From the NCBI RefSeq assembly GCF_024223415.1, contig NZ_CP100500.1: DNA of 64,000 bases. The stretch is one strand, 5' to 3'. The first letter of the stretch is position 1; each line of letters opens with the position of its first letter. The translations under genes and the position numbers were made by a program. The DNA comes from Escherichia coli. GTDB taxonomy: Bacteria > Pseudomonadota > Gammaproteobacteria > Enterobacterales > Enterobacteriaceae. Below the pieces are notes generated by a model, which saw nothing but the letters and a program-made list of their open reading frames with translations, was not told the origin of the DNA and did not search any database. Below, piece by piece: positions 18,869-59,914 of this stretch.

Positions 18869-20152
18869 TTACAGACTTCTGGAAGGTTGCGCAGCTCTTA
18901 CAACACGCGGTTGATCTTCCGCAGCGTCTTCCAGCGCACTTAAATCACGGTCTTTCACTTCTGGCATTTTCAGCGCAGAGATTAAACCAATCACTGAATA
19001 TGCCATGATCATAATGGCGATCGGATACCAGGATTCCGTCATGGTGCAGAAAATACCCGCCAGGATAGGACCAAAACCGGAAGCGATAAGACCACCAATT
19101 TCTTTAGAAATAGCCATCCGGGTAAAACGGTTTTTACAACCGAACATTTCTGCCATGGTAATGTTTTCCAGAGCAAATAATCCCAGCACCGCACAGTTAT
19201 GAATCACAATCAGTGCAACCATAATGGTGCTCGGGGCATAGCTTTTATCTACGATGATAGAAAGCATTGGCCATGCCAGCACAATCGCAGAGGTATTCAT
19301 AATAATATACGGGATCCGGCGACCAATTTTATCGGATAACCAACCAAGGAACGGAATGGTCATAAAGCCGAGAATCGAACTGATCATCAATGCATCTGTT
19401 GGAATTGCTTTGTTAAACAATAACGTCTGTACTAAATAGCCTGCAAGGAAAGTCTGAATTAACCCGGAGTTACCTGCCTGACCAAAACGCAGTCCTGTTG
19501 CCAGCCAGAAGGATTTGCTCTGGAACATGCTACCAGCAGGTGCAGGTTTTGCTGTCGGTTGGTTGCTGTCGTTAACCTTCTCAAAGACCGGGCTTTCTTT
19601 CAGATTCATACGCAACCAGATAGCAAAGACCATCACGACAACGCTCGCCAGGAACGGTATACGCCATCCCCACGCCAGCAGTTCCTCTTTACTGAGAATG
19701 AAGAACATAAAGGCCCAGATTGCCGTTGCGCTCAAGGTTCCGCAGTTAGTTCCCATAGCTACAAATGAGGAGATAATTCCGCGCTTACCTTTTGGCGCAT
19801 ATTCCGCCAGCATCGTACCGGCACCGGAAATTTCCGCACCTGCACCCAACCCCTGAATAATACGCAGCGTCACCAGCAAGATGGGTGCAAAAACACCAAT
19901 CTGTGCATAGGTCGGTAACACACCAATTAAGGTGGTACAGATCCCCATCATGGTGATGGTAATAAAGAGCACTTTTTTACGCCCTATTCTGTCGCCCATT
20001 TTGCCGAAAATAAATGCTCCGACAATACGCGCCACATAACCTGCACCGTAGGTTCCCATTGCCAGAATTAACGCCATTGCCGTTGATGATTCAGGAAAAA
20101 ATATTTCATGAAACACTAACGCTGCGCCGAGCGAATATAACTGGAAATCCAT
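18869..20152 (-). pseudogene. ydfJ: MFS (metabolite:H+ symporter family) transporter YdfJ, 5'-truncated at the prophage junction
   Basis: ORF begins MDFQLYSLGAAL, i.e. inside the conserved TM1 W-(F/Y)-D-F motif of MHS transporters; about 25-30 N-terminal residues missing; sequence character changes at about 20153. Confidence 0.7.
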
Positions 20153-20753
20153 AATTCACAGGTGTTTTTTCCCATCCTGTGGTTTCCTTGGCGTTTTCTA
20201 GGTTTTTTCAGATAGTTGCATTTTTTTAAAAGCATCCTAAGTTCGATCTCAGTGTCTATCTGGGGCCTATTTCTGTCCCATATATGCCCCAAAAAACTCC
20301 CCAACAGATAAGTAGTTTTTTCATGGATTTACGCGTAAAATCAATAACGGCTGGAAATCATTCAATACTCGCACTATCGAAAAATTTACCAGCCAACCGC
20401 AGCACGTTCTTGCATAAGGTGTGTCTGCGGTTTTTCAACTATTCAGATACATCACTCCCATCACATTCATTCCTCCACATCAAAGGCATATAGGCTATAT
20501 CACCTTGATATTTTTCTTCTTCAGATAAAAACTGTTATCTATGTATACTTTTAAACCCAATCCGTGTAGAGTCTCTGCATAAGATAGTTTGCAGTTGCCA
20601 CTTCAGATTGCGCCATAAACCGCCTGATTTTTGCCGCCACCTGTTAGCATTCCTGTATACCTGAAACGACAATGTTTATCTACGAACTTTAAGAACACCC
20701 AAGATAAAATTGTCAACTATATCATATATAACACATTACTAATTCGAGGCTAT

Positions 20754-20867
20754 ATGAACAGCATACTGATAATCACTTCTCTCCTTATCATATTCAGCAT
20801 TTTTAGTCATGCCCTAATAAAATTAGGGATTGGCATATCCAATAACCCAGACAAAACCGATGTATAA
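20754..20867 (+). CDS. Hypothetical small hydrophobic protein, 37 aa (single TM)
   Basis: ATG with GAGG SD; [37 protein letters not shown]; AT-rich prophage-end region. Confidence 0.3.
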
Positions 20868-20935
20868 GTCAACATATCCTGAATCAGACATACAATATCG
20901 CAATGAAAATCAATAATATTTTAAGGAATATCTTC

Positions 20936-21169
20936 ATGAAATCAAAAGACACCCTAAAGTGGTTCCCTGCGCAGCTTCCTGAAGTAAGAATTATCCTAGG
21001 GGATGCTGTAGTGGAAGTAGCAAAACAGGGAAGACCTATCAATACCAGAACATTGCTTGATTACATTGAAGGAAACATAAAGAAAAAATCATGGCTGGAT
21101 AACAAAGAATTATTACAAACAGCGATATCAGTTCTTAAAGACAACCAAAATTTAAATGGTAAAATGTAA
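20936..21169 (+). CDS. ydfK: Prophage protein YdfK (YnaE paralogue), 77 aa
   Basis: Start at MKSKDTLKWFPAQ with AAGGAA SD. Confidence 0.8.
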   Translation: MKSKDTLKWFPAQLPEVRIILGDAVVEVAKQGRPINTRTLLDYIEGNIKKKSWLDNKELLQTAISVLKDNQNLNGKM

Positions 21170-21485
21170 TATAATAAACTTACTTTTTTATCATTTTTCC
21201 ACTTTAACAACATTTTGCTCCACTTTTCCACGACCAAACAACTTGAAATCTGGTTAAAATAACACGCAACACTATTCTTCTTCCTTGAGTCCGCCCGGAA
21301 CTCGAAAAACAAACCGAGTTAAAGCCATTTTTCACAAAATCGATTTTGGGTCTCACCAAAGTTACGGGGTTGCATACGCATTCGTTTATTTTCGAACGTG
21401 TACATACAAATATGCACAAAAATAATCAAAATTATTTTCTGAGATGCATTATGATATGAACACCAATTTCGTATAGAGTCTCACT

Positions 21486-22076
21486 ATGTCTCGAATTTTT
21501 GCTTACTGTCGGATATCAACGCTGGATCAGACCACCGAAAATCAACGCCGGGAAATCGAAAGTGCAGGTTTTAAAATCAAACCTCAGCAAATAATCGAAG
21601 AACACATTAGCGGCTCAGCAGCAACCAGTGAGCGTCCTGGTTTTAACCGGTTGCTTGCTCGCCTGAAATGTGGTGATCAATTGATTGTGACAAAACTGGA
21701 TCGCCTTGGTTGTAATGCAATGGATATCAGGAAAACAGTGGAACAACTGACCGAAACAGGTATCAGAGTGCATTGCTTAGCATTGGGGGGCATTGACCTG
21801 ACCAGTCCAACAGGAAAAATGATGATGCACGTAATTTCAGCAGTCGCTGAATTTGAACGAGACCTTTTACTTGAACGAACTCATTCCGGGATAGTAAGAG
21901 CCCGCGGCGCAGGGAAACGTTTTGGTCGACCACCTGTGTTAAATGAAGAACAGAAACAGGTGGTATTCGAACGAATTAAGTCAGGTGTAAGTATAAGTGC
22001 CATTGCCCGGGAATTCAAAACCTCGCGGCAAACCATTTTAAGAGCCAAAGCAAAACTTCAGACACCTGACATATAA
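21486..22076 (+). CDS. pinQ: Serine-recombinase DNA invertase PinQ, 196 aa
   Basis: Resolvase/invertase N-terminal catalytic domain (YCRISTLDQ with active-site Ser) and C-terminal HTH. Confidence 0.9.
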
Positions 22077-22173
22077 AAAATAATCTCGGTGTGAGATGCT
22101 TTACGTCTTCCAAGCCCCCTTCCTTGCCGTAAATGGAAAGATACATCTAATTATAGAATTTATATGTTTTACC

Positions 22174-22749
22174 CTACGGCAGTGCTGGCCATTCAATATC
22201 CTGTGCAGTTGACGTATCAACACGGTTCAGCAACACCCGATACTTTTTCCAGGCTTCCAGCAATGAGGTTTCTTCCTCCGTTGCGATTTCCAGATCTACA
22301 GCATCCTGAAGTGGCGCAATATGCTCACTGGCTACCTGCATCAGGCTGTTTTTTGTTTCTTCCGCCTCCCGGATCCGGAACAGTTTTTCTGCTTCTGCAT
22401 CTTTCACCCAGGCTGTGCCGTTCCACTTCTGAAACTCCCCTTCCGGCGATAACCAGGTAACATTTTCCGGTAACGGACCGAGTTCAGAAATAAATAACGC
22501 GTCCCCTGACGCTACGTCATAAACCGTTTTACCCCGATGGTCTTCATCGAGATGCCACGATGCCTTATCACTGTTGAAAACAGCCACAAAGCCAGCAGGA
22601 ATATCTGGTGGTGCAATATCGGTACTGTTTGCTGGCAGACCTGTATGAGGCGGAATATATGCGTCACCTTCACCAATAAATTCATTAGTTCCGGCCAGCA
22701 GATTATAAATTTTTATGGTCCGTGGTTGTTCACTCATTCTGAATGCCAT
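22174..22749 (-). CDS. tfaQ: Tail fibre assembly protein (TfaQ/TfaR-like), 191 aa
   Basis: Recognised Tfa sequence; start overlaps the stop of the upstream fibre gene. Confidence 0.9.
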
Positions 22750-25247
22750 TATGCAAGCCTCACAATATAGTTAAATGCGATGTTTTTGACGGTGTTTTCC
22801 GCGTTACCAGCAGCGTTAACGGTGATGGTGTGTCCATGTGAGCCAATCGCAACGGAGTGCGTATGAGCACCAATACCGACAGTATGTGCGTGTGCACCTG
22901 CAGATGCTGCGGTGCCGGACAGTGAGTGGCTATGATTACCATCTGTACTGGTATTAGCTAACGCCCCCGTAGACATACCTACTGAGCCTTGTACACCCCA
23001 AGTATTTTGACCTGAGCTTGTATAACCATATTGATAAGTATCTTTAAAAACACTGGGGTTAAATCGACGGCCATCTCTATGGCTGTGATTACCAGCTGCA
23101 TTCGTGCTGCCACTTAAACTATGGGTATGCGCACCAGTGTTATTCGTAGATTTAGTGCCGTAATCAAACGACGATGTGGTTTTCGTCCCCAAATCCGTAC
23201 TGGATGCGCTGGCGCTGTGGGTATGCGATTTAATGCCGTCCTGTTCCTGAGACAATACGGCCCGACCACTGGCAGGTTTGCCCTTAATCGTCCAGCCACG
23301 CATATCAGGGATCACGCCTGACGGATAAGCCGCTGCAAGTTTCGGGTATGCAGATTTGTCAAAAGCCTGCCCCTGCATCAGGGCATAGCCAGACGGAACG
23401 GTATCTGATGGCCACGGGATTGGTGCGCCAGGCGGATAAAACTGCTCTGATGGCGTATAGAGTGAATAAACTGTACCGTCCGTTAACCCTTCCGGCTTAT
23501 TAGCAGAATATGCTGGTGACGTATGAATCGTCACGCTGGCATTACTGGTATAATCCCATTGAATATTTACACCAGTCGCATAATTTCCGATTGCAACGTA
23601 AATATCGTAAGTATCACCAGATGTATTAACCCAGGCAAAATTTGTAAACCCTGTCAATGTGCGCTGCCATAAAGCACCAGTAATCCCCTTCGGATTACCA
23701 TTACCTGCACGTAAAACAAGTTCAGATATACCTGCCTGTTGAGGTGACCCCACGTTAAATCCAGCGCCACCAATCAACGTAATTGAAACAACAGAACTCG
23801 CCTGTGGCATGGTTACCGTTGCTAATTTGAACCAACCAGCACCACCGCTGAATGACATTGTTGTTGAGTTAAGCGTACCAATATCTTTCGACGTCAGTGT
23901 TATATCCGCTGAAAGCGCCTTACCATTCACCTTACGGGCAGAAGGTACCCGACCATTCGCATTGTCATTAGCTGCTTTCACTGCTTTCGGTGTCGCAGCA
24001 AGCGTTTCAGATGTGCTGTTGGTTGCACTACTGAGCTGGACAATTCCTTTTTGTGCTGTCGTAGCGTCCTGTGCGGTGTATTTCCCGTTAGCCAGGTCAT
24101 ACGCGGCCTTAACGGCTTTTGGCGTTGCCGCCTGTGACTCGGAAGTGCTGTTAGTCGCACTGCTGAGCTGAACTATCCCTTTCTGTCCTGTCGTTGCATC
24201 CTGTGCGGTGTATTTCCCGTTAGCCAGGTCATACGCGGCCTTAACGGCTTTTGGCGTTGCCGCCTGTGACTCGGAAGTGCTGTTGGTCGCACTGCTGAGC
24301 TGTACTACCCCCTTTTTCGTCGTGCTCGCATCCTCAAGCGCCACGGCGGATGCAATATCCTCTGCACGTTTTGCCGCTGTCTCAGCGCGCGTTGCTGCGG
24401 ATTCTGCCGTACTTTTGCTCTGTGCTGCCGCTGCCGCACTGCCAGCAGCCTCTGTCGCCTTCGTGGATGCCGTCGTGGCGCTGCCCCTCGCTGCTGACGC
24501 CTGTCTGGTCGCCTCATCTTTTGAAGCCGACGCATCCCTGGCTGAGGAGGCAGCTTCTGACGCTTTCGTGGTCGCGGTGGATGCAGAAGTGGCGGCTGAT
24601 TGTTGTGACGCTGCCGCATTCGTTTCTGACGTTTTTGCCGCACCGGCACTGGTGGCCGCCGCGCTTTTTGAGGACTCTGCAGCGGCAGCACTTTTTAATG
24701 CTTCAGTGGCCTTTGCTGATGCCATTCCTGCGCTGGAAGACGCTGACTGAGCCGACGACGCGGCCTGTCCGGCTGACGAGCTGGCTGCGCGTGCTGAGTC
24801 TGCAGCATCAGTCGTATGGGTTGCCGCCTCACGGGCAGATGTGCCGGCATCGCTGGCTGACTTCTTTGCGGCTGCCGTGTTCTGTGCCACTGCGGACGCG
24901 TTACGCGCCACCTCTTCCACCATCAGCTCAAAACGGCGCAGTGCCTCCGGACGGGCATCATCCTCCGTCATGGCACCGAGAAAATCATTCAGCGTACCGG
25001 GTTGAGAATCTTCATACACGGTGATGGTCCCGGCATGTGACGGCGGGAATCCTTCCACCAACAGAATAACGCTGTACTGACCGTACTCAACGTCCATGCT
25101 GTAACGCCCGGCTTCATCCGGATTTTCTGAGGCCAGCGTGTTCACCACCACCGTGGTGCTGTTACGTTTTGCTTTCAGCTGGATTGTGCAGTTCTGTACC
25201 GGTTTTCCTGTGCCGTCTTTCAGTACACCTGAAATCTTTACTGCCAT
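22749..25247 (-). CDS. stf: Side tail fibre protein (Stf), about 832 aa, with three 44-aa tandem repeats
   Basis: Lambda Stf-like N-terminus ([17 protein letters not shown]); Ala/Ser-rich coiled region; C-terminal His/Gly-rich fibre tip. Confidence 0.9.
23945..24335. repeat. Three tandem copies of a 132-bp unit inside stf
   Basis: Near-identical DNA repeats with period 132 bp, encoding repeated [16 protein letters not shown](S/T)[26 protein letters not shown]. Confidence 0.8.
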
Positions 25248-25311
25248 ATTCACCCCACAAAAAAGCCCGCCTGAACCGGCGGGCTGTCATAACACTGTGT
25301 TACCTGGCTAA

Positions 25312-25911
25312 TCAGAACTTATAACCGACACCCATGATGAAACCGTCAGTGCGCCAGTCGCCACTGCCGGAGCCTTCATAAGCAATATCAATGGCCACGG
25401 ATTCGGTCGGGTTAAACTGCACGCCAGCTCCCCACGCCAGAGACGTGTTGCTGTGGCGACCGTCATCACTTCCGGTCAGCACGTCGTGCGTTTTCCCCTT
25501 GTTGTCAGTTACGCGGAGATAATCCCCGGAGAAAGTCGACACACGGCTGTAAGCCACACCCGCCATCGCATACGCGCTGAACCATTCATTCACGCGCACA
25601 GACGGCCCCGCCATCACGCTGAACCAGCGGTTACGAACGGAATCTTCATGCCAGCGGGTATCGCTGTAACGGGTCAGCTGGCGATTCTTGTCTCCTGCAT
25701 AGCTGAATGACGTCACCAGCCCCAGTATGTCCGTAAACTCATAACGGTATTTCACGTTAATCCCGTTCAGATCATCGCTGCCGGGAACGTTCGTCGAGGC
25801 ATGAAGATACCCCGCGCTCAGCGTGGACTGATGTTCAGACGCCCATGCAGGCGCACCGGATACGGCCAGACAAATGGCTGCGGACAAAATGGCTGCACAA
25901 ACTTTACGCAT
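25312..25911 (-). CDS. lom: Lom/Ail-family outer-membrane beta-barrel protein, 199 aa
   Basis: Signal peptide, alternating beta-strand pattern, C-terminal aromatic residue; lambda lom position after J. Confidence 0.9.
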   Translation of the reverse strand: MRKVCAAILSAAICLAVSGAPAWASEHQSTLSAGYLHASTNVPGSDDLNGINVKYRYEFTDILGLVTSFSYAGDKNRQLTRYSDTRWHEDSVRNRWFSVMAGPSVRVNEWFSAYAMAGVAYSRVSTFSGDYLRVTDNKGKTHDVLTGSDDGRHSNTSLAWGAGVQFNPTESVAIDIAYEGSGSGDWRTDGFIMGVGYKF

Positions 25912-25981
25912 AATTACCTCTCGCTTTTCTGCAATAAAAAAGGCGTCATTCCTGACGCCATTTATTGGGGTTATAAATATT

Positions 25982-28900
25982 TCAACGAATACTGATGCCG
26001 GAAGCCGCTTTTTTGGTCACAATCACCGTACAGTCGGTGATATTGCCTGCCCCCTGATTGCCTTTCTGGAAAATCTTAAACTCCAGAGTGACGCTACCAC
26101 CACCACTAGGCATATCAATAACTGCACTGTAACTACCGGGAATGGCCCCTTTAGTTTCTCTGGATGCGATTAATACGCCGTTTTTGCGAACTTCAAAACC
26201 ATAACCCGTGTATCGCGTGCCTCCTGGGTTATTTCCGCTCCCCGGATCGTCATACGCTATACCGTTAAAAATAATGGGCGGAATAATAATCTGGCGGTCA
26301 AAGTTATGATCATCGCTGATGGTGACTGTAACCGTACCGTTTGGTGTTTCCGTGTTACCCCACGTACCGACTTTTTTCGGGAAGGCTTTTGATACAGCTT
26401 TAACGAAATCTCCTCTGACCTGGGTCGCCTCCAGCATGCCCTTAATCGTACAGTTCTGGTTAATCGTGACATTGTTGAGCGTTCCTGAGTTCGCATTCAC
26501 ACTACCACTGATATCCGCATTTTTAGCGGTCAGCTTTCCGTCTGATGTCAGGGAAAATACCGGAGGACTGCCACCGCTGGTAATGGTGGGGGCTGTCAGG
26601 CGCTTCAGGAACACGTCGTTCATGAATATCTGGTTGCCCTGCGCCACAAACATCGGCGTTTCATTCCCGTTTGCCGGGTCAATAAACGCGATACGATTGG
26701 CGGCAACCAGAAACTGGCTCAGCTTGCCTTCCTCCGTGTCCTCCATGCTGAGGCCAATACCCGCGACATAATGTTTGCCGTCTTTGGTCTGCTCAATTTT
26801 GACGCCCCACATGGCATTCCATTTATCACTGGCGTCTTTCCACTCTTTCGAAAACTCCTCCAGTCTGCTGGCGTTATCCTCCGTCAGGTCGACTTTTTCC
26901 AGCAGCTCCTGGCCGAGATGGGATTCGGTTATCTTGCCTTTGAAAAAATCCAGGTAACCTTCCGCATCATCGCTCGCCCGACCGACGGCCTCCACGAATG
27001 CCGATTTGCCAACGGTGTTCACACTGCGGATATAAAAGTAATAATCATGGCCCGGTTTGATATTGATACTGGCGGCTATCCAGTACAGCCCCGTGCCAAG
27101 GTAGCGGGCTGTGGTTTCAACCTGCCTGATATCGGTAATCCGCGTTTCCGAGAACCAGAACTCAAACTGTACCGTCGGATCATAAACCGCAAGATGCGGC
27201 GTGGCAGTTATCTGAAAATAGCCCGGCGTCAGCTCAATCCGCGACGGCGCTGCCGGGGCGGCAATCCGGAACGATACCGACGCCGGATCGCCCTGCTGTC
27301 CCCGGGCATTTACCGCCCGGACCGTCAGCGTGTAACGCCCCAGCGCCAGTTGCCTGAAGCGGTAAGTGGTTTCCGTCGTCCGGGCCGTGCTGACCAGCCG
27401 CTCACTGCCGTCATCCGCGGCCACGGTCAGGCGAAGCAGGAAGCTCACGCCCTTCACCACCTTCGGCGTGTCCCAGCGCGCCAGCACCTGATATTCCCCG
27501 CTGTCTGCGGTGACTTCTGCGGTCAGGTGCTGTACTGCTGGCGGCGTGACACCATTCACCGTTCCGCTCTGGTCGCCGTCAAAGTGCGCCCCGTTATCCA
27601 CGATGGCCTCTTTTTCCGGTACATGCTGCACGGCAGTGATGGCATACGTGCCGTCGTCGTTCTCACGGATACTCACGCAGCGGAACAGGCGCTGGCGCAG
27701 CGTCGGCAGCTTCAGCCCCCACACGCTGTACTCGGCAACGCCGTCAGGAACCCGGCTCACTTTCACCTTCACGCCGTCGGTGACGGACTGAACCTCCACG
27801 CTGACCGGATTGCCACTTCCGTCAACCAGACTTATCAGCGTGGTACCGGAGGATGGCAGCGTGATTTCACGGTCGAGCGTCAGCGTCCGGGTCTGGCTGT
27901 TCACCGCCAGCACACGACCACCGGTGCTGATACCGGCATAGTCATCATCACAGATTTCAATGACATCGCCCGGTACATGGCGAAGCCCTTCAGCACCCAC
28001 GCTGAAGTCCACGGTCTGCGTCTCCAGCAGCTCCGTTTTAATCAGCCACAGCCCGGCGCGGTGTGCCTGCCCCCGGCTGGTACAGCCAAAGGCATCCATC
28101 TTCGTGACGTTACGACCGTAACGGGCAATGGCCTGCGTGTCCTCCACAAGCTCTGTCGCCGTCTCCTGGCCGTTATTCGGGTCACTCCAGTTCACCTCAA
28201 CGGCATTATGGCGGTCCTTCAGGGCGCTGAAGCTGTAGCGGAACGGCGCGCCATCATCCGGCATCACCACATTACTGCGGTTATAGGTCCACACCTTATC
28301 CGACGGTCGGTCCTGCACGAACGTCAGCGTCTGCCCGTTCCATACCGGCATACAGCGCATCGCCGAGCAGAAATCACTGAGCACATCCCACGCCTTACGC
28401 TGCCTGGTCAGCCAGGCATTACAGGTGATGCGCGGCTCCGTGCCACCAAAGCCGTCCGGCACTGACTGGTCGCAGTACTGGCCGATGACATACAGCGCCC
28501 ATTTATCCACATCCGCCGCACCAAGACGTTTCCCCATGCCGTAGCGCGGATGGGTCAGCATATCCCACAGACACCAGGCCGGGTTGTTGCTGTATGCCGG
28601 TTTAAACGTTCCGTCCCAGATACCGCTGTATTGCCGCGTCTGCGGGTTATAATTCGACGGCACCTGCAGAATACGCCCGCGAAGATGATAATTACGGCTC
28701 ACCTGCTGGCTGCCGAACTGCTCCGAATCCACCTGCACACCGACCAGTGCCGTGTTCGGGTAGCACTGTTTCACATCGATGATTTCGGTGTATGACGACC
28801 AGAGCGTTTTGTTCTGCAGCTGGTCTGTGGTGCTGTCCGGCGTCATCCTGCGCATCCGGATACTGAACGGGCGCGGCGGCAGGTTACCCACCACCACCGG

Positions 28901-29395
28901 GGCCAGATACTGCGAGGTGGTTTTGCCCTTAATGGTGATGTCTTTTTCCGTTAACCAGCGACCGTTACGCTGTATCTGAACCAGCAGGCGGACTTCCGAC
29001 GGATTCCGGTCCCCCTTTGAGGTGGTTTCCACCAGTGCCTGCACACCGAAGGTCAGGCGCAGACGGTCGATGTTTGCCGACGTGATGGTCCGGGTAATCG
29101 GCGTGTCGTACTTCACTTCCGTACCCAGCACCGTCTCGGAGCCGGAGGATTCAAATCCCTCCGGCGGTGTCTGCTCCTGCTCACCTGCCCGGAAAACCAC
29201 CGTGACACCGGAGATATTGGTATTCCCCTCACTGTCCAGCACCGGCGTACTGTTCAGCAGCACACTTTTTAATCCGTCCACCGGACCTTCAACCGGCCCT
29301 TCACTGATGGCGTCTATCACGCTCAGCATCTGGGATGATTTCAGGTTGTCCTTCGCTTCGCGCGGGGTATGCCCCTTACTGCTGCCTTTACCCAT
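25982..29395 (-). CDS. J: Tail tip host-specificity protein J, 1137 aa
   Basis: N-terminus [20 protein letters not shown] as in lambda gpJ; length and position. Confidence 0.95.
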
Positions 29396-29455
29396 TCCTC
29401 ACGCTCCAGAAACGACAAAACCGCCCTGAGGCGGTTTCACATAAAACGTTTTTCA

Positions 29456-30103
29456 TCAACGACCAATCACCACAACCTGACCACCGTCCCCCTCGTCTGC
29501 CGTGCTGATCTCCTGAGAAGCCACCCGCGACCCCACGCGCATTTCACCGTACAGAACCGGCAGAACATTGCCCTGAGCAACCATGTTATCCAGTGAGGAG
29601 AAATAGGTGTTCTGTTTGCCGTTATCTGTACTGGCTGCCGTGGGCGTCCTGGCTTTCGGTGCCAGCATCTGCGCCACACCGCCCAGGATCATACTGGCCC
29701 CTGCCGCATACATGCCCGATACAGCCGCGGCACCCAGCCAGCCCACAGGGTTCCACCATGCCACCGCAATCAACGCCGCCCCCAGCACCACCTGAAATAC
29801 ACCGCCACTTTTAGCCCCCGCCAGACGCGGCACGATATGGATCACGGCACCATTTGCCAGCGGCTCATTAAGACGGGCAGATAATTCGGTTTCACCTGCA
29901 TCACGCCCGGCAATGCGCACCTGATACCAGCCATCATTCAGTTTCTGACGAAACGCCGGGACCTGTGTGGACAGCGCCCGGATGGCTTCAGCCCCCGTTT
30001 TCACACGAAGGTCGATGCGGCGGCCAAATCGTTGTAAATCCCCGTAAAGGCAGATGCGTGCCATGCCCGGTGACGCCAGAGGGAGTGTGTGCGTCGCTGC
30101 CAT
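29456..30103 (-). CDS. I: Tail assembly protein I, 215 aa
   Basis: MAATHTLPLASPGMARICLYGDLQRFG as in lambda gpI. Confidence 0.9.
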   Translation of the reverse strand: MAATHTLPLASPGMARICLYGDLQRFGRRIDLRVKTGAEAIRALSTQVPAFRQKLNDGWYQVRIAGRDAGETELSARLNEPLANGAVIHIVPRLAGAKSGGVFQVVLGAALIAVAWWNPVGWLGAAAVSGMYAAGASMILGGVAQMLAPKARTPTAASTDNGKQNTYFSSLDNMVAQGNVLPVLYGEMRVGSRVASQEISTADEGDGGQVVVIGR

Positions 30104-30744
30104 TTGTCGGTATACCTCTCTCGTTTACTCAGTTGTTCAGGAATATGGTGCAGCAGCTCGCCGTCACCACAGTAAATAGCGGCATGATTCGGCACCGATG
30201 AACCAAAACAGCACAGCAGCACATCGCCCGGCTGCGCCGCTGACAACGGCACCTGATATAGCCCCGTTGCCTCCAGATTATCCAGATAGAGATTCTGACC
30301 GTGACGCCACCAGTCATCCTCACGATGAAAATCCGGCATCTCAATCCCCGCCAGATGGTAAGCATCCCGGAACAGCGTGTAACAGTCCGTCACCCCGTGC
30401 TCAAAGCGCCGCCCGGTGAGATGCGGCACACAGCGGAATTTATGAATCTCACCCCGGCAGACCAGCCACCACGGCAAATCACTCTGCACCTGCAGCCGCC
30501 GGTCGGCCTCACTCAGCCAGGGCAGACCACCGGGGTGGCTGTGGACCAGCGCCACAATCTCACCCTGCATCTCTGCCCGCAGCCAGTCCTCCGGCGACAT
30601 CCGGAAATACGCCTCCGGCTCACCGGAGATATTCACGCAGGGAAAATATCTTTCCCCCTCCGGTGTTCTCACCACGAAGCCGCACGACTCCGCTGGCGCA
30701 CATCGCCGGGCGTGCGCCAGAATCGCTGATTCTGTCTGTGTCAT
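30001..30744 (-). CDS. K: Tail assembly protein K (MPN/JAB plus NlpC/P60 domains), 247 aa
   Basis: Start at MTQTESAILAHARRCAPAESCGF; HSHPGG JAMM-like motif. Confidence 0.9.
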   Translation of the reverse strand: MTQTESAILAHARRCAPAESCGFVVRTPEGERYFPCVNISGEPEAYFRMSPEDWLRAEMQGEIVALVHSHPGGLPWLSEADRRLQVQSDLPWWLVCRGEIHKFRCVPHLTGRRFEHGVTDCYTLFRDAYHLAGIEMPDFHREDDWWRHGQNLYLDNLEATGLYQVPLSAAQPGDVLLCCFGSSVPNHAAIYCGDGELLHHIPEQLSKRERYTDKWQRRTHSLWRHRAWHASAFTGIYNDLAAASTFV

Positions 30745-30748
30745 GGGA

Positions 30749-31447
30749 TTACTGCGAAAGTTTGTTAATGGAAAGGAAGCCGCCAAAGTTGCCGACGTTA
30801 TTGCGAAACTTACAACCACTCAGGCATTTGCTGCATTTATCCTTCGTGATATCGGACGTCGGCTGGTCATATTCATCAGCGACAGCCGGACCGCTATAAC
30901 CGCACTCATCACCGCGATAGGTCCAGGTGCAGGTGTTGGCCAGCATGATGCGCCCCGGAAAAACAGCACCATCCGTTTCCGTCGGTGTGGAGAGCACAAA
31001 GGAGGCACTGACCGCACTCAGTTCGCTGCACTGCTCGATGCGCCAGCGGCTGATCACCTCCTGCTCCGGATCGGCGTCACTGTTTCCGTTGACGAAGTTC
31101 ACCGCATCCAGAAAACGGGCGTAAACCTTACGCCGGACCACCGTTCCTCCGACCAGACTCTGCAGGTCTTCCGCCATCCCGGTGACCATGCCGTGCAGGT
31201 TAGAAACCGTCAGTGTCGGACGGGCAGCACTGCCTTTGCCGTTCAGTTCAAATCCCGTCCCCTGAATGGGATACGCCTGATACTGTCGCCTCTGCCAGGT
31301 GACCGGCTCACCTTTATCGTTCTGCTCATTACAGAAAAAATAACGTTCTCCACCGACCACTGTCAGATCGATTTCCCAGAGCACCACCTGGGCTGACTGA
31401 GTGAGGCGTGTCGTCTCATGATGTGTTTCCTGTGGAATATCCTGCAT
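30749..31447 (-). CDS. L: Minor tail protein L, 232 aa
   Basis: Lambda gpL-like sequence and length. Confidence 0.9.
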   Translation of the reverse strand: MQDIPQETHHETTRLTQSAQVVLWEIDLTVVGGERYFFCNEQNDKGEPVTWQRRQYQAYPIQGTGFELNGKGSAARPTLTVSNLHGMVTGMAEDLQSLVGGTVVRRKVYARFLDAVNFVNGNSDADPEQEVISRWRIEQCSELSAVSASFVLSTPTETDGAVFPGRIMLANTCTWTYRGDECGYSGPAVADEYDQPTSDITKDKCSKCLSGCKFRNNVGNFGGFLSINKLSQ

Positions 31448-31456
31448 CAGAGACTC

Positions 31457-31786
31457 CTATGCCACGACCTGTTCAAAATCTGCCGTTATGGTTACCCACA
31501 ACGCCCCCACGCTTGCCGACCATTTACGACAAACCACCCTGATCGGCTTCCAGTCATAAGGTGGCGTCCACTGAAATGCGCGGACGCCACCGTGCCGTTC
31601 CAGAAAGGCTTTTAAAGATGGGTGTTCACATTTACGAACACGTATCGTCACGCTGTAAATCGACAACTGGTTATTCAGTCCCGCCGCACGACGCTGTTCA
31701 TAACCATCGCCCAGCTTCACTGTCACCACTTTCGGCTCTGATACCACATTCATATCCGGGCGCACTTTCCAGTGAAACGTCTCCAT
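31457..31786 (-). CDS. M: Minor tail protein M, 109 aa
   Basis: Lambda gpM-like sequence and length. Confidence 0.9.
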   Translation of the reverse strand: METFHWKVRPDMNVVSEPKVVTVKLGDGYEQRRAAGLNNQLSIYSVTIRVRKCEHPSLKAFLERHGGVRAFQWTPPYDWKPIRVVCRKWSASVGALWVTITADFEQVVA

Positions 31787-34700
31787 TACCGATATGCTCC
31801 ACTTAACCGACCACCATCACGGGCCTGCTGTTGCATAAAGTCCGCTGCCGCTTTTTTCCCAAGGTCATAAACCACCTTCAGGGCAGCCGGACCTATCTGC
31901 CCGTTCGTGCCATCGTTATTGATCTCGATGTTGTACTGCGGGGCAAACATCGCCATACCTGAACCACCAATATCCGCCACAACCCCCAGCTTACCGTCAG
32001 CACCACGACGCAGTGGCAGAATGGCTTCAGGTCCAGCTTCCCCCATCACACCCGCGCCTTTTGCAAAAGCAAAAAACGTCGGACGGTTAACCACCGTGCC
32101 ACTGTAACGACTCAAATCAGCAGACTGATAAATCCCCCCATTGGCATTCAGGGAAAGGCTGCTGAGATCAAATCCCAGTACACTGCCAATCCCTTTTATC
32201 GATTTCATCATGGTTGCCTGCGCCAGGATTTTCGCCATATCTGACAGCACCGAAGAGGTGAAGGATTTGAAGTTGAGTTTGCCGGTAGTGACAAAAGTTG
32301 CCAGGCCATTTCCCATGTTGCTGAAGGCTGATGAGAACACCTGTTCTGCTGTTCCTGCCGTATTGTCTGCATCCACGGTAAAATCCTGAAATGCACGCAG
32401 GACTCCGTTTTTCCAGTTACCCTGCACAACTTCAAGCTGTTGCCAGTAACGGCGATTCTCATTCAGTTGTCGGTTCAGGCTCTCCGTCAGCGCCTGCTCG
32501 GCCTTTCTGTAGTCATCCGTGTTATATGTCCCTTTCTGCTCACTATCCCGCCTCAACTGCTCCAGCTGTTGCTGGTATTTCTGGCGAAGACTCAGTTGTA
32601 CCTGATATCGCTGCCGCTGCTGATCACCCATACCCACCGTGGCGATATCCAGGTCATGTTGCTGACGCTGAGCGCGCTCTTCTTCAGCCAGTTGACTGGT
32701 CAGCTGAATTGTTTTTTTCTTCAGATCGTTGAGTGCCGTTTGTTTCTGAAGCTCCTGCTGTTTTACATCCAGCAGCGTCAGTGCCTGAATCAGTTCATCT
32801 TTACGGGCCAGCACACTCTTTTCATCTGCCGTCAGTTTTTTCCCGTCCAGGTCGCTGATGCGCTGCTGCAGAGCCAGAAGCTGTTTATGCGCTTCTGTCA
32901 TCCTGTCAGTGGCAATGCCTGCTGACTGTCTGGCAGCAGCAATCTGCCCTTCCACCTGTGCCTGTTGCTGGCTGTACTGCAGCAATAACCGGGTGGCCTC
33001 ATCATTACGGGTTTCGCGTGTTTTTTTCTTACCGGATGCCAGGGCTTTCTCGTAACGTTCATTTTCACGTTGTATCGCCGCATCCCTGACAGCCTGATCG
33101 GCGTACTGCATGGCATTAATACGCGCAATTTCACGCTGATGTCGTGCTGCTTCCGTTTCATTCATCCGGTTCAGTGCAGCATTTTCAGCATTACGGCGTT
33201 TCTGTTGCTCCTGATAATTCCGCTCTGCCTGCTCTTTTGCATCCTGCAAATCCTTCTGGCGTTTTTTCTCCTGAAGCTCGTTAAGACGCTGCTGATCGTA
33301 TTCAACCTGAGAAGATGATGCCGTCCAGGGGAGTCTTTTCGCCCGCGATACTTTCTCCTGCAAAGTGGCAATCTGCGCATCCAGCGAATCTTCACGACCA
33401 ATATTCATGGCCGCATCCCAGAACTGCTTCCACCAGTCAGACAAGGTTTGCAGCGTACTACCCAGCGCATTGAGGTTATTATCAATATCCGCAGTACGCC
33501 GACCGGTTTCCTCTGCCAGTGCAGACATGGCTATCCGTGCCGCATCACTGGAGCGCCCCTGCTCTCCAAGGACGCGTATCTGCTCAAGCTGAGTGGCAGT
33601 AAGAAAATGCAGCTCATTGTCCAGAGCCTTCGCGGCATTTACAGGATCATCCTTCAGCCGCTTAAACTGATTTATGGTATCGCTGATCGACTGGCCAACC
33701 GATCGCTCCATCTGTGCGGCAGCTCTCGCCACCATACCGATATCGTTTCCACGAAATGCACCACTCCCCACCACCTGAGCCAGCGCACCGGCTGCAGCAT
33801 GTTGCGTGATACCATTCCCGGAAATAGCACGACTGAGCGTCCACAGCTGCCCGGCAGTGACTCCGGCATAATGCCCCGTCAGCGACAGCTGGCGGTTAAA
33901 TTCTTCCCCCTCCTTCTGACCGTCATACCAGGCTTTACCCAGACCATAGACGGCCGCGGTAATACCGCCAATAACCCCGCCCAGCATCATGCCTTTCGGT
34001 GACATCAGTGTGTCTATCCATCCGGCACGGTTAGCCAGCGTTATCCCGGATCCCCTCAGCGCCCCTAAATTGCCGCGGGCCAGTTCACCTATCAGAACGC
34101 CTATCTCCTGGCGGGCCGCTGCACTTTTCAGACCCAGCGAATGCGTGGCTTTTCCTGCCCGCTCCATTTTGCGGATATACACTTCTGCAGCACTGCTTAC
34201 CCCCAGCTGGGCAGCCCTGGCACGAAGCAACTCAGAAGAAGAAAGATTCTGGCGGGTTGCCTGCTCTTTAAGCTGACGGATAAACGCCACTTTCTGTCGG
34301 GTAGCCTCTGCCTCAGCCTGCGTAAGAACACGGGTTTTCGCCGTAACCTCAGAAATCAGCGCCAGATAATCCTGCTGACCAATCCCGCCACTGTTTCTGG
34401 CCTGTCGGATCTGCTGCTGAATACGCTGTAACTCCTGCAACCCCGCACTGGCCTGTTTCACACTGTCAATCTGACGATAAAACGCGGCAGCCGCTTTATC
34501 CTGAGCCTCCGCCAGAGCCATGGCCTGCGCCTGTTCCTCGCGCATTTTCTGGCTCAGCGCCTCCATGCGCTGGCGGGTTTTCTCCACCTCGCGGGCCATG
34601 CGTTCATGAGCCTGTGCGTTCTTCTCCACCGTCTGCGCATGGACGGATGCGGCTGTTGCAGCCGAAGAAGCCGCCTGCGTTGTCTGCCGGGCGGCCTGAG

Positions 34701-34851
34701 TCTGACGCTCCATAAAACGCTGCATACGGGCAGAAGACCGTTCTGCATCGCTGGCTGCACCATTCAGAAGGTTTTTGATACGGGGAATTTCATTTTTAAA
34801 TTCTGCCGCATCAATCCCCAAATCAATGACCAGGTTGGCTATCTGGTCCAT
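31786..34851 (-). CDS. H: Tail tape-measure protein H, about 1021 aa
   Basis: Start at MDQIANLVIDLGIDAAEF with GGAGGTG SD; long coiled-coil-rich ORF; conserved C-terminal NNDGTNGQIGPAALK. Confidence 0.9.
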   Translation of the reverse strand: MDQIANLVIDLGIDAAEFKNEIPRIKNLLNGAASDAERSSARMQRFMERQTQAARQTTQAASSAATAASVHAQTVEKNAQAHERMAREVEKTRQRMEALSQKMREEQAQAMALAEAQDKAAAAFYRQIDSVKQASAGLQELQRIQQQIRQARNSGGIGQQDYLALISEVTAKTRVLTQAEAEATRQKVAFIRQLKEQATRQNLSSSELLRARAAQLGVSSAAEVYIRKMERAGKATHSLGLKSAAARQEIGVLIGELARGNLGALRGSGITLANRAGWIDTLMSPKGMMLGGVIGGITAAVYGLGKAWYDGQKEGEEFNRQLSLTGHYAGVTAGQLWTLSRAISGNGITQHAAAGALAQVVGSGAFRGNDIGMVARAAAQMERSVGQSISDTINQFKRLKDDPVNAAKALDNELHFLTATQLEQIRVLGEQGRSSDAARIAMSALAEETGRRTADIDNNLNALGSTLQTLSDWWKQFWDAAMNIGREDSLDAQIATLQEKVSRAKRLPWTASSSQVEYDQQRLNELQEKKRQKDLQDAKEQAERNYQEQQKRRNAENAALNRMNETEAARHQREIARINAMQYADQAVRDAAIQRENERYEKALASGKKKTRETRNDEATRLLLQYSQQQAQVEGQIAAARQSAGIATDRMTEAHKQLLALQQRISDLDGKKLTADEKSVLARKDELIQALTLLDVKQQELQKQTALNDLKKKTIQLTSQLAEEERAQRQQHDLDIATVGMGDQQRQRYQVQLSLRQKYQQQLEQLRRDSEQKGTYNTDDYRKAEQALTESLNRQLNENRRYWQQLEVVQGNWKNGVLRAFQDFTVDADNTAGTAEQVFSSAFSNMGNGLATFVTTGKLNFKSFTSSVLSDMAKILAQATMMKSIKGIGSVLGFDLSSLSLNANGGIYQSADLSRYSGTVVNRPTFFAFAKGAGVMGEAGPEAILPLRRGADGKLGVVADIGGSGMAMFAPQYNIEINNDGTNGQIGPAALKVVYDLGKKAAADFMQQQARDGGRLSGAYR

Positions 34852-35173
34852 AACGCACACCTCCGGAAATACCTTCCCCAAGATGCATCAGTTCTTCGTC
34901 CGTTCGCTCCGGTATCCCGTTCTCTTCCGGTAAAAGGCTGAAATCAGCCACCGCAGCATCACTGCTGCCGGACACCATTCTCACGATCAATGCCTTCAGC
35001 GAGGCAAACTGCGCATCCATCCACACATCACTGAAGCTCTGCATCCGGAAATAATCGCCCCACTCACCAAGCTCAGTGGCCGACATTTCCGACAGCATCC
35101 GCCGCCAGTCTGCCCGCCTGAACTCCCGGGCAAGCCGCATGACAAACTGCATTTCCCGCGTCAGGACTTTTCC
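34823..35173 (-). CDS. T: T segment of the tail assembly chaperone G-T fusion (expressed by -1 frameshift from G)
   Basis: ORF in the -1 frame relative to G, open across the end of G; position identical to lambda G/GT. Confidence 0.65.
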   Translation of the reverse strand, partial: GKVLTREMQFVMRLAREFRRADWRRMLSEMSATELGEWGDYFRMQSFSDVWMDAQFASLKALIVRMVSGSSDAAVADFSLLPEENGIPERTDEELMHLGEGISGGVRYGPDSQPGH

Positions 35174-35589
35174 GGCGTCAGCACCTCATGCTCCAAATCC
35201 CCGACATTCTCAATGGCTCCCATACCGCTCAGCGACAGAACCATCTCCGCCCCCGCTCCCAGGGCATCATACGACCATGTTGTAATAACGGATGCGCAAA
35301 GCGTCTCAACATCCTGAGACTGTTCCGCATTCCACAGTGAGCGGGAAACCAGCCAGGCATTGATATCCATCCCCATCCGTAGAAAAGCAATCTGTCGTTC
35401 AGCCTCCGGCAGTTCTCCCTCTTCGGCATCAAACTTTGCCGTTCGCTGCTGAACAAACGCCAGATATTCAATTCTCTGCAGCCCGGACAGCTCACTGAGC
35501 ACCACGGACTGCTTTTCATAATTAAACGTGCCCTGTTTCAGAAACATCATGTTCTCCACCTGCAAAAAAGCCCCGGATAATCGGGGCAA
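35161..35589 (-). CDS. G: Tail assembly chaperone G, 142 aa
   Basis: Position between V and T/H; size as lambda gpG. Confidence 0.8.
   Translation of the reverse strand: MPRLSGAFLQVENMMFLKQGTFNYEKQSVVLSELSGLQRIEYLAFVQQRTAKFDAEEGELPEAERQIAFLRMGMDINAWLVSRSLWNAEQSQDVETLCASVITTWSYDALGAGAEMVLSLSGMGAIENVGDLEHEVLTPEKS
35167..35173 (-). other. Candidate -1 programmed frameshift site GGAAAAG near the 3' end of G
   Basis: Minus strand reads ccG GAA AAG tcc tga in the G frame; lambda uses G GGA AAG at the equivalent position. Confidence 0.4.
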
Positions 35590-35607
35590 ATGATGAGTAT
35601 CGTCCTG

Positions 35608-36351
35608 TTAACCTGCGGCGCTGACGGCCACCGTAGCCACTGCCACAAAATCGCCGTCAGAAGTCATGCCCACAATGCTGACACTGCCCTGCTTCACGCC
35701 TTTCACCGTGACCACAAGCCCGTTCAGGGTCACCGTGGCAGTCTGTGGATCTGTCGAATGCACACTGATCGCTTTGTCACTGGCTCCGTCAGGTTTTACT
35801 GTAAAGGTCAGCGTGGTGGTTGCTCCCACTTTTACACTGGCAGATGCCGGTGCCACCGTCAGCCCGGTAACGCCCACGATTTCAGTGCCTTCTTCTGCCA
35901 GATACGGACGCCCCACACCGCTGATTTTCACTGTGCGGGTCATCACGTCTTTTGAGGCAATGGTTTTACCCAGTGAACTCAGCCAGCCACGGAAAACATC
36001 AACAGTACCGTTGGGATATTTGATACGAAACGCGCAGACTTCACCGGAGTCGAACAACTGAACCAGTTTTTTCTGCCCGCTGTCACCCGGACGCCAGGCC
36101 AGCGTCGCCGAAGTATCACCGACGGATTTCTGCCCCTGGGTTGTCGTTTTCCAGTCTGCATCTTCATCATCGAGATAAGTGTCATCTTCTGCATCAGCGG
36201 TCATTTCGCCAGGCTGCAGATCCTTCACCATCGCAAGACGCAGCCAGTCAGTGTCCGATAAAGGGTTCGCAAACGCATCGCCCTTGCCGGTGTACATCCA
36301 GAACGTCGTTCCCGCACCTTTCGTTTTTGCCAGTGGATTTGGTGTGGTCAT
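35608..36351 (-). CDS. V: Major tail protein V with C-terminal Ig-like domain, 247 aa
   Basis: Start at MTTPNPLAKTKGAGTT; lambda gpV-like throughout. Confidence 0.9.
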   Translation of the reverse strand: MTTPNPLAKTKGAGTTFWMYTGKGDAFANPLSDTDWLRLAMVKDLQPGEMTADAEDDTYLDDEDADWKTTTQGQKSVGDTSATLAWRPGDSGQKKLVQLFDSGEVCAFRIKYPNGTVDVFRGWLSSLGKTIASKDVMTRTVKISGVGRPYLAEEGTEIVGVTGLTVAPASASVKVGATTTLTFTVKPDGASDKAISVHSTDPQTATVTLNGLVVTVKGVKQGSVSIVGMTSDGDFVAVATVAVSAAG

Positions 36352-36361
36352 TGCCACCTCC

Positions 36362-36763
36362 TTAATTCGTGTACGTGATCTGGTACGTGATTTCCGCCAT
36401 CGCCCAGGTGGCCATCTCATTATCACGTTGATAGTTAAAACCGAGTGGGATCAGGGTGTCGATGAGTCCGGAAAGTGCCGGTACATCATTCAGGGCCGGG
36501 AAAATGGTGCTCTCCATCCACATATCCAGCTCTGAATCCGGTGCCTGTGCCCGGATGAAGACGGCAATATGCAGAACAGCCTGCCAGTCATCTTCATCCG
36601 TCATTTTTCCGGTGTACTGAGCATCACTCAGCCACACCGCCACGGCAGGCAGTTCCTGCGCATCAATAAATGCCGGAAGCCCGTCAAAAAATGTGGCGCT
36701 GTCTCCACACTGTTCCCGAAGGCGTGCCAGTACGGCCTGGCGGATTTGTGTATGTCGGTTCAT
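36362..36763 (-). CDS. U: Tail terminator protein U, about 133 aa
   Basis: Lambda gpU-like (ATFFDG, PAVAV, PDSELD-WMES motifs); start ATG overlaps the Z stop (ATGA). Confidence 0.85.
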   Translation of the reverse strand: MNRHTQIRQAVLARLREQCGDSATFFDGLPAFIDAQELPAVAVWLSDAQYTGKMTDEDDWQAVLHIAVFIRAQAPDSELDMWMESTIFPALNDVPALSGLIDTLIPLGFNYQRDNEMATWAMAEITYQITYTN

Positions 36764-37338
36764 CGGGTCAGCCATAACCTCAGTTGTTGTTTCAGTGCAT
36801 ACCCCAGCTGTTTCGGCATTTCCGCAGCAATGATGCGCTCGCGGGCATCTTCAAATGCCTGTGTCAGCGGTCCGGACAGCGGGATTTTCACCACATCAAT
36901 GGGGTAACGATTTTTGCCATCAATACGCCGCATCACATGCCAGCGACCATTCGCCAGTTGCTGAATAAACGCATCCCGGAAAAGATATTTACCCACCTTC
37001 AGCACGCTGCCACGGTACTGCAGTTTTCCACCACGCCGGGCCAGTCTGACCCGGGCTGTCCCCAGCTTAATGGCGGGCAGATTGCCCCGGTTAACGCGGA
37101 TCCTGGCCGTCATTTTTCCTGACGGACTGGCTTTAAACACCCGGACACGCTGACGTACCAGTTTCAGGGGGATCCCTTTCACCTGGTTATCTCCCGCAAC
37201 GGTATTCCCGGCAACCTGCCGGGTGGCAACCGAGACCGCTTTCTGTGCCACACGGTTTATCGCCCATGCGCTGGCCTGTGGCACCATACGGGTATCAAGG
37301 CTGTTCAGATTGCGGATGGCATTCTCAAGCCCCTTCAT
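36760..37338 (-). CDS. Z: Tail completion protein Z, 192 aa
   Basis: Length and position as lambda gpZ. Confidence 0.85.
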   Translation of the reverse strand: MKGLENAIRNLNSLDTRMVPQASAWAINRVAQKAVSVATRQVAGNTVAGDNQVKGIPLKLVRQRVRVFKASPSGKMTARIRVNRGNLPAIKLGTARVRLARRGGKLQYRGSVLKVGKYLFRDAFIQQLANGRWHVMRRIDGKNRYPIDVVKIPLSGPLTQAFEDARERIIAAEMPKQLGYALKQQLRLWLTR

Positions 37339-37349
37339 CCCACACCTCT

Positions 37350-37625
37350 TTACTCAATAAAGATCATTGGCTTACCGTTAAAGCGTTCATGCCGTGTGAC
37401 CGTCCATTGTTGTCCGTCATAAACAACGCGATCCCCGCGCCGTGGGCGGTATCCCGAAGAAAACACCACCAGAGAGACCGCAGGTCCGGACAGAGCATTC
37501 AGCTCTGCCAGTGTTTCTCCCGGGATCACGGTCATATCGACATCATTAATCGAGGCTGTCTTTCCCATCTTTCTGACCGTGATAGCATCCATACGCGCTG
37601 CCAGCCGGGAAAAGGGATCAGACAT
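37350..37625 (-). CDS. Head-tail attachment protein (gpFII-like), 91 aa
   Basis: C-terminal RRGDRVVYDGQQWTV resembles the lambda FII RRGDTLTIGEENFWV region; position before Z. Confidence 0.65.
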   Translation of the reverse strand: MSDPFSRLAARMDAITVRKMGKTASINDVDMTVIPGETLAELNALSGPAVSLVVFSSGYRPRRGDRVVYDGQQWTVTRHERFNGKPMIFIE

Positions 37626-37941
37626 TGAGTTTTACCGGCACTTCTTCTGCACTGGTTCCGGCATCTGCCCAGACAACCCCGACCAGCGGATCAGAGCCGC
37701 TGTTAGTCAGCTGAACTTTTCCGGACTTCAGATAAACCTTCTTACCCGTTTTCATGTCATCCGTTTTCAGCTTAGGCAGCATAAACACACCTTCGGTCAT
37801 ACCGTCGCCTGTTTCACCCTGTGGAATATCGGTCAGCGCCACCGCAAAAACATCACCCACCTGCACCAGATCTCCGCTGCTGATGGCTGCACTGGCAACA
37901 ATCGCCACCGTTTTTCCTTCTTCTACAAAATTCTTTGCCAT
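37618..37941 (-). CDS. Hypothetical head protein (FI/decoration position), about 107 aa
   Basis: Start at MAKNFVEEGKTVAIV with GGAGA SD; lies between the capsid gene and the FII-like gene. Confidence 0.45.
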   Translation of the reverse strand: MAKNFVEEGKTVAIVASAAISSGDLVQVGDVFAVALTDIPQGETGDGMTEGVFMLPKLKTDDMKTGKKVYLKSGKVQLTNSGSDPLVGVVWADAGTSAEEVPVKLNV

Positions 37942-38027
37942 AACTGTCTCCACACAGCCCCGTTCAGGGGCTGATTTCAGGTACAAAAAAAGCCCTTACG
38001 GGCCATCAGAGTTGTTGTCTGCGATGT

Positions 38028-39986: not shown

Positions 39987-39999
39987 CCTGAACCAGGAA

Positions 40000-41508: not shown

Positions 41509-41726
41509 CAGAACCTCGCCAGCCGGTACCCGGGATGCCCCCGTCGTCGTGTAATCAGAGCCGCAAGGCGGCGCTCCCACTCCTGCCGTCCCTGCCGGAT
41601 CTCAGATAAGTTTTCCATGGTCATCTGCTGACCATTAAAGGTGACGGATTTTCCGTCCAGCACCGCCATTTCAGCTTCCATATAACGCTGAATCATGGCT
41701 TCGATATCATTCTGGTTCATAACCAT
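41508..41726 (-). CDS. Head-tail joining protein (gpW-like), 72 aa
   Basis: Small ORF between terminase large subunit and portal, as lambda W. Confidence 0.65.
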   Translation of the reverse strand: MVMNQNDIEAMIQRYMEAEMAVLDGKSVTFNGQQMTMENLSEIRQGRQEWERRLAALITRRRGHPGYRLARF

Positions 41727-43816: not shown

Positions 43817-43824
43817 TATTCCTC

Positions 43825-54597: not shown

Positions 54598-54749
54598 AGG
54601 AACGTAGCACGTTTTATGCAACACCCGCATGCGGCAGAAAATTATTGCCGAACGTTTACCCCTGTCAACAAGCTTTACTTTCTGAGGCGCGCCAGCCCGC
54701 GAGGAAAACAATCTGAACATCAAAGAATTAATGACACAAGAAATACGAT

Positions 54750-54776
54750 TAAAGATTTTTTTGTGCATGCCGATAG
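54750..54776 (+). promoter_or_regulatory. FliA (sigma-28) promoter of flxA: TAAAGATT-N11-GCCGATAG
   Basis: Close match to the sigma-28 consensus TAAAGTTT-N11-GCCGATAA, about 25 nt upstream of flxA. Confidence 0.65.
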
Positions 54777-54799
54777 TGCTTTTTTAAAAGGAGAAATCT

Positions 54800-55132: not shown

Positions 55133-55146
55133 GTGACAGCCGTATT

Positions 55147-59913: not shown

Positions 59914-59914
59914 T

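Follow-up and report, generated by a model that had tools for sequence, protein, structure and literature searches.

Tail-fibre-side junction of a Qin-type lambdoid prophage in the transporter gene ydfJ of Escherichia coli

Introduction

In the 64,000-nucleotide stretch of Escherichia coli DNA analyzed here (the window), the reading frame of the MHS-family MFS transporter gene ydfJ opens abruptly at MDFQLYS, and the DNA beyond its start is AT-rich. Is this the natural beginning of the transporter, or the mark of something that entered the gene? A sequence-only reading of the window had proposed a prophage junction within 20100-20960. The Qin prophage is described in a review as site-specifically integrated at the 5' end of ydfJ, with loss of the promoter and a protein without its 28 N-terminal codons (PMC6379469). 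Such a junction is ordinary and matters little as a discovery. Its practical value lies in annotation, and what our analysis adds is a base-exact boundary, the extent of a conserved att arm, population counts and a long form of Qin.

Results

ydfJ lacks its first 28 codons

The ydfJ remnant (ydfJ') covers 18869..20152 on the minus strand, comprises the 3' 427 codons and opens with the residues MDFQLYSLGAAL (MDFQLYSLGAALVF); ydfI is its downstream neighbor on the same strand. In the prophage-free strain D8, intact YdfJ has 455 aa with the N-terminus MTIEKHERSTKDLVKAAVSGWLGTALEF-MDFQLYS, and compared with D8 the window gene is missing exactly 28 codons (84 nt) together with the upstream region. 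The sequence-only reading had put the loss at about 25-30 N-terminal codons plus the promoter, an estimate that the two protein lengths bear out. The ATG of the shortened ORF is native Met29, and because this methionine sits within the att core described below, the remnant still reads as an ORF.

The MHS model TIGR00883 aligns to the window protein from residue 1 over profile positions 7-400 (453.5 bits; cutoff 443.45), falling short of a full-length match that includes the N-terminal first helix, whereas it aligns to intact YdfJ from residue 23 over positions 1-400. A match that starts at 7 rather than at 1 places the break within the beginning of the family's conserved core, that is, in the first membrane helix, in agreement with the earlier claim that the frame opens within the conserved first transmembrane motif. 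The window copy is an MHS member by descent, truncated at its N-terminus.

An 11-bp core marks the breakpoint

We compared the junction and the empty site base by base, a procedure that involves no chance statistics. The exact core is the 11-bp sequence GAAATCCATAA at window positions 20144-20154, common to both prophage ends and the empty site: copies are found at 20144 in the window, at both ends of Qin in K-12, at the integrase end of the prophage in strain NCTC10444, and once in the empty site. Set side by side, the empty site reads ..AACTG GAAATCCATAA ATTCAAGCGCAG.., the window junction ..AACTG GAAATCCATAA TTCACAGGTGTT.., and the integrase-side junction of NCTC10444 and K-12 ..GACTCTT GAAATCCATAA ATTCAAGCGCAG... 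The flanks of the core swap between sites exactly as attL, attR and attB predict. The breakpoint thus lies inside the range first proposed, and window 20144-20154 can be used as a base-exact prophage boundary.

If one mismatch and an additional A are tolerated, the common block grows to CT[G/T]GAAATCCATAA[A]TTCA; on the phage-type side it measures 18 bp (window 20141-20158), on the bacterial-type side 19 bp. Comparison of the window, both K-12 ends, the NCTC10444 integrase end and the D8 empty site gives CTGGAAATCCATAATTCA as the attachment-site sequence at 20141..20158. Its length agrees with the "18- or 19-bp att sequence" ascribed to ydfJ prophages in the S7 Fig legend of PMC8112680; in that paper, the att of ydfJ prophages is defined with a PCR-derived attP for the ydfJ prophage of O26:H11 strain 11368.

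When the host sequence flanking the window junction is joined to that flanking the far junction in NCTC10444, the result is a rebuilt empty site of 939 nt. It translates in frame as MTIEKHERSTKDLVKAAVSGWLGTALEF-MDFQLYS... and, with identity of up to 99.7%, is contiguous in 2010 of the 5426 complete E. coli genomes. In D8 this site is annotated as rspA-rspB-ydfJ(1368 nt, 455 aa)-ydfI; rspAB, ydfJ and ydfI lie on one strand in empty-site genomes, with gaps of only 57 and 89 nt. The target is therefore uninterrupted in related genomes and the host flanks rejoin exactly, giving 455 aa in frame, as at a lambda-type junction. The insertion is precise and core-flanked and splits ydfJ at codons 26-31, and recombination in the core would restore the gene exactly. 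Alignment to prophage-free E. coli, which had been suggested as a check, returned the 11-bp att core; the displaced 84-nt 5' fragment of ydfJ was located in NCTC10444, and no continuity with prophage-free genomes was found beyond 20154.

The empty-site genomes also bear on whether YdfJ naturally starts at the MDFQLYS methionine, with ordinary intergenic DNA upstream that happens to be AT-rich. The ORF does open with ATG, and K-12 annotates the 427-aa "putative transporter YdfJ" as a normal CDS. However, the gene has 455 codons in the 2010 genomes, and the 28 additional ones align to family profiles, TIGR00883 from position 1 and the shikimate transporter and ProP models reaching further N-terminally. 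In addition, a TGA stop precedes the ATG by two codons, no Shine-Dalgarno-like sequence is found within 12 nt of it, and PGAP flags the gene, labeling ydfJ of NCTC10444 "incomplete; missing N-terminus". No full-length homologue that naturally starts at this methionine was found. The empty-site genomes, the 455-aa annotation and the family profiles refute a natural start at this position, to which we assign practically no weight. For annotation, the window ydfJ should be handled as a prophage-split gene whose N-terminal part is missing.

All eight aligned occupied genomes, which come from different lineages, have the same breakpoint, and this constancy bears on how the gene was cut. Deletion, IS insertion or illegitimate recombination beside an unrelated island, in place of an integrase, would be another route to the truncation, and some strains do have insertion sequences here, such as IS1 or IS903B next to or inside ydfJ in two matches. 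Against this, the breakpoint is the same to the base across lineages and across different prophage types, the 11-bp core is present at both ends, the joined host flanks recreate the intact gene in frame, and an integrase and excisionase pair lies at the opposite end. Constant breakpoints and a duplicated core refute an origin without an integrase, leaving it a negligible chance.

A conserved arm adjoins the core

On the phage side, the core is followed by a stretch at 20155..20291 that is conserved in alignment and ends in the palindromic GTCCCATATATGCCCC. This arm of ~137 bp is kept up to ~20291 in K-12, E24377A, MS14384, 042, O157:H7 and others, and O157-type prophages diverge after it. We interpret the stretch as a putative functional att arm common to all phages that use the ydfJ site, the counterpart of the P arm of lambda, at the end opposite int; it would be expected to carry protein-binding sites. 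A search of the arm for repeats as candidate integrase arm-type sites returned just short two-copy matches and one palindrome, which lend such an assignment no support.

Between the start of ydfJ' and ynfT lie ~600 bp without a credible ORF, and an Rfam search of this gap between core and ynfT for non-coding RNA returned chance-level matches only (CssrB, at 22.8 bits where the gathering score is 76, and mir-263). The first gene is ynfT (20754..20867, plus strand), which encodes a 37-aa small protein of the YnaM/YnfT family (Pfam PF23676, E = 6.5e-28, and annotation) and is prophage cargo, as is ydfK (20936..21169, plus strand), annotated as cold shock protein YdfK in NCTC10444 and K-12 and without a Pfam match. 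The invertase-type serine recombinase gene pinQ follows at 21486..22076 (plus strand; Pfam Resolvase and HTH_7) and is distinct from the prophage integrase. The sequence-only reading had described AT-rich DNA leading into ydfK and pinQ; G+C indeed drops from 0.43-0.51 in ydfJ to 0.32-0.39 over 20150-21500 and both genes are present, but the 37-codon ynfT had been overlooked.

Next on the minus strand come tfaQ (22174-22749) and a side tail fibre gene of 834 aa (22749-25253), and past these a lom-like gene, J and the rest of a lambda-like structural set. The side tail fibre gene has 834 codons in the window versus 986 in NCTC10444. The ~445-nt difference falls in a run of near-identical peptide repeats, indicating that repeat copy number varies between otherwise near-identical prophages. 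Rfam IS009 has a full match at 22208-22406 (minus strand; 226.8 bits, gathering score 117), a stretch that overlaps tfaQ at its 3' end and extends into the gap before pinQ. Far from the junction, in the chromosomal part of the window, the Hfq-binding RNA STnc560 has a full Rfam match at 10574-10787 (minus strand, 281.9 bits).

The prophage reaches the end of the window

The Qin-like lambdoid prophage body occupies 20155..64000, up to the window end, and is collinear with NCTC10444 2479038-2523354. It contains tail, head, terminase and lysis genes, cold-shock genes, the Q antiterminator, relBE/hokD, an immunity region, dicF/dicB and an exonuclease gene. The DicF small RNA lies within the prophage at 60751-60802 (Rfam), as in K-12 Qin. 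Two cspA-type thermoregulator leaders are found upstream of the prophage cold-shock genes (46822-47207 and 49718-50110), also as in K-12 Qin.

NCTC10444 is the closest complete E. coli genome, with 98.7% identity over 25 kb and 100% across the junction. It is collinear with the window from 18809 to 64000, with 99.93% identity over the last 17.2 kb (46786-64000), and the match has two exceptions, the number of tail-fibre repeats (~445 nt) and an IS5 insertion in NCTC10444 only. Window 45425-46786 holds an intact DUF1398 (ydfO-like) gene where NCTC10444 has the IS5-like ISKpn26 and a DUF1398 fragment only; structurally, the two prophages differ mainly here.

No tyrosine integrase is present within the window, which ends 10 bases into an excisionase gene (63991..64000, plus strand, start codon at 63991). 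In NCTC10444, the far end of the prophage comprises the excisionase gene, a 426-aa site-specific integrase, the second core, the displaced 84-nt ydfJ 5' fragment and rspB. The integrase has the Pfam domains Arm-DNA-bind_2 and Phage_integrase, and its neighbor is a DUF1233 excisionase. The earlier expectation that integrase and right boundary lie beyond the window end thus fits NCTC10444, where both follow directly. Taking NCTC10444 and K-12 as proxies for the integrase and right end of the source genome, we predict the integrase at ~64277-65557 and the second core at ~65595-65605, ~0.3-1.6 kb past the window end. The integrase-end junction would read ..CTTGAAATCCATAAATTCAAGCGCAG.. and continue into the ydfJ 5' fragment, and the whole prophage, extrapolated from NCTC10444, would measure about 45.5 kb.

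The early region contains, beside DUF977 and YdaT-like genes, an ORF of 439 codons with helix-turn-helix and integrase-core (rve_3) domains (55569-56888, minus strand). In the corresponding region, the annotation of NCTC10444 has an incomplete IS1202-like (ISEsa1) transposase. This transposase-like ORF may mean that an otherwise complete-looking prophage is perhaps unable to replicate.

The element is a long form of Qin

The window feature is a Qin-type prophage at ydfJ and as such already known, being annotated in K-12 and described in reviews. In K-12 MG1655, the "cryptic prophage Qin" (Kim) is annotated at 1632277..1652745, integrated in ydfJ; the first base of this feature is the first base of the core, and its last base lies just before the second core copy. 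The core and flanks at its left end are identical to the window junction, and the window prophage is integrated at the ydfJ att core with the K-12 Qin breakpoint. Over the initial 2.8 kb of phage DNA (att arm, ynfT, ydfK, pinQ, tfaQ and the 3' part of stfQ), the two are ~98.4% identical, and later matching blocks contain ydfO, cspI/B/F, the lysis genes, ydfT/U, rem, hokD, relBE, flxA, dicA/C and dicF/dicB. Using blastn, we obtained six blocks of 97-98.6% identity between the window and K-12 and a short tail-fibre block of 94%. The Qin marker genes (ydfK, pinQ, tfaQ, cspB/F/I, relBE, hokD, dicB and DicF RNA) are all present, and the same genes are annotated in the collinear NCTC10444.

In contrast to the window prophage, K-12 Qin is a 20.5-kb remnant without the ~22 kb of tail, head and terminase genes found at window 23443-45362, and its integrase is disrupted (an intQ pseudogene with IS2). 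Relative to K-12 Qin, the window prophage is the long form, with the full structural gene set and an extrapolated length of ~45.5 kb. This long form of ~45 kb, with K-12 Qin its 20-kb remnant, helps to reconstruct the decay of Qin. At the integrase end, K-12 has the 36-codon gene ynfP, which matches in length and in its place beside the second core the displaced ydfJ 5' fragment; translated from NCTC10444, this fragment running into phage DNA gives MTIEKHERSTKDLVKAAVSGWLGTALEFMDFKSHAC. By length and place, then, the ynfP ORF is probably the displaced ydfJ 5' fragment.

Other prophages use the same site. According to PMC8112680, PPydfJ prophages of Shiga-toxin-producing and other E. coli share the locus and the 18- or 19-bp att with the window. 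O157:H7 examples have the breakpoint and the ~137-bp att arm of the window. However, O157-type prophages carry other cargo past the arm (a DinI-like gene and effector loci), often in tandem clusters, whereas only one element, of Qin type and with ynfT, ydfK and pinQ, is present in the window. In O157:H7 strain 3384 and strain 2014C-3599 (1285-1753), only the ~137-bp att arm is common with the window and a DinI-like gene follows, so that a single conserved attachment module is combined with unrelated cargo modules.

The layout also resembles that of lambda. In both, the two ends share a short identical core, and a conserved att arm adjoins the core; an integrase with an arm-binding N-terminal domain is paired with an excisionase at one end, and the opposite end is occupied by tail-fibre and accessory genes. 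The core sequence and the target differ, the site lying here inside a coding sequence and in lambda between gal and bio in intergenic DNA. The integrase, as represented by the proxy, has 426 aa and a different arm-binding family (Arm-DNA-bind_2).

The junction is common in E. coli

We counted occurrences across 5426 complete E. coli genomes at ≥80% query coverage. A junction probe of 300 nt host and 300 nt phage DNA matched at least 2989/5426 genomes, so the junction is present in more than half of them; a longer probe reaching pinQ matched 1985/5426. The integrase-side junction was found in 2673/5426 and the rebuilt empty site in 2010/5426. Occupied genomes include K-12, BL21, E24377A, 042 and O157:H7, and the site is empty in an O25b:H4-ST131 genome and likewise uninterrupted at ydfJ in an assembly of Nissle 1917 (EcN).

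Discussion

We put the probability at about 0.97 that a Qin-type lambdoid prophage is site-specifically integrated into ydfJ, with its tail-fibre-side junction at window 20144-20154. The first description of the locus as the left boundary of a lambdoid prophage in ydfJ is upheld by the uninterrupted rspB-ydfJ-ydfI arrangement in 2010 genomes and by the duplicated core in K-12 and NCTC10444. Lying at the end away from int, the junction would be the counterpart of lambda attR. In the mechanism that we propose, a tyrosine integrase of the phage, which has an arm-binding domain and is encoded shortly past the window end beside the excisionase, would have exchanged strands between attP (..CTTGAAATCCATAATTCA..) and attB (CTGGAAATCCATAAATTCA), the insertion target being ydfJ codons 26-31. 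By analogy with lambda-type systems, integrase and host factors would catalyze this reaction and excisionase would direct the reverse. The split would leave the promoter and the first 28 codons by rspB at the integrase end (the 36-codon ORF, ynfP in K-12) and the other 427 codons by ydfI at the window junction, with ydfJ' and ydfI parted from the upstream rspAB region by ~45 kb. As a consequence, ydfJ' would be left with neither promoter nor ribosome-binding site and with only half of the first membrane helix, and ydfJ would have lost its function through the insertion.

Is the remnant decaying or kept? To look for signs of decay or of continued selection in ydfJ', we took 13 occupied genomes and 6 with the empty site from along the match ranking. 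A rival view is that ydfJ' (together with ydfI) still receives transcription from phage-side DNA and persists as a functional transporter of 427 aa, not a dead pseudogene. ydfJ' is an uninterrupted 427-codon ORF in 13/13 of the sampled occupied genomes, and its polymorphic codons (58 synonymous-only versus 9 amino-acid-changing) show the same ratio as those of the six intact alleles (46 versus 7). However, the variants E436Q, R444H, R447T and A449V are common to occupied and empty genomes, indicating that occupancy changes (by integration, loss or recombination) faster than alleles diverge. This turnover suffices to account for the lack of decay in ydfJ', without selection on the remnant. Because the variants are common to both classes, we rejected the polymorphism ratio as evidence of either decay or selection. 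Moreover, promoter-like sites facing ydfJ' do not exceed the shuffle expectation (7 found versus 6.9 expected) and none is located close upstream on the minus strand, no Shine-Dalgarno-like ribosome-binding site precedes the ATG, and half of the first membrane helix is gone, including conserved motif positions. Thus, a still functional ydfJ' is unsupported, and we consider it very unlikely. The gene is probably inactivated, although its ORF shows no decay in the 13 sampled occupied genomes.

The cluster rspA-rspB-ydfJ-ydfI is presumably one for L-gulonate catabolism and has reportedly been studied in strain CFT073; our search of the literature on its function found no source. A more speculative view, to which we give a slimmer chance still, is that the long and structurally complete Qin-type prophage acts as a reversible switch on this sugar-acid cluster, or that the 427-codon remnant is kept functional in lysogens. 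If there were such a switch, precise excision at the 11-bp core would put back a ydfJ of 455 codons in frame, and ydfJ-ydfI would again be linked to transcription from upstream. An intact ydfJ' in all 13 sampled lysogens is compatible with both views.

In the E. coli Nissle 1917 assembly NZ_CM187577.1, prophage-free at this site, ydfJ (101-1464) is annotated as frameshifted (1364 versus 1368 nt), which could reflect either a real second route to the loss of ydfJ or an assembly error.
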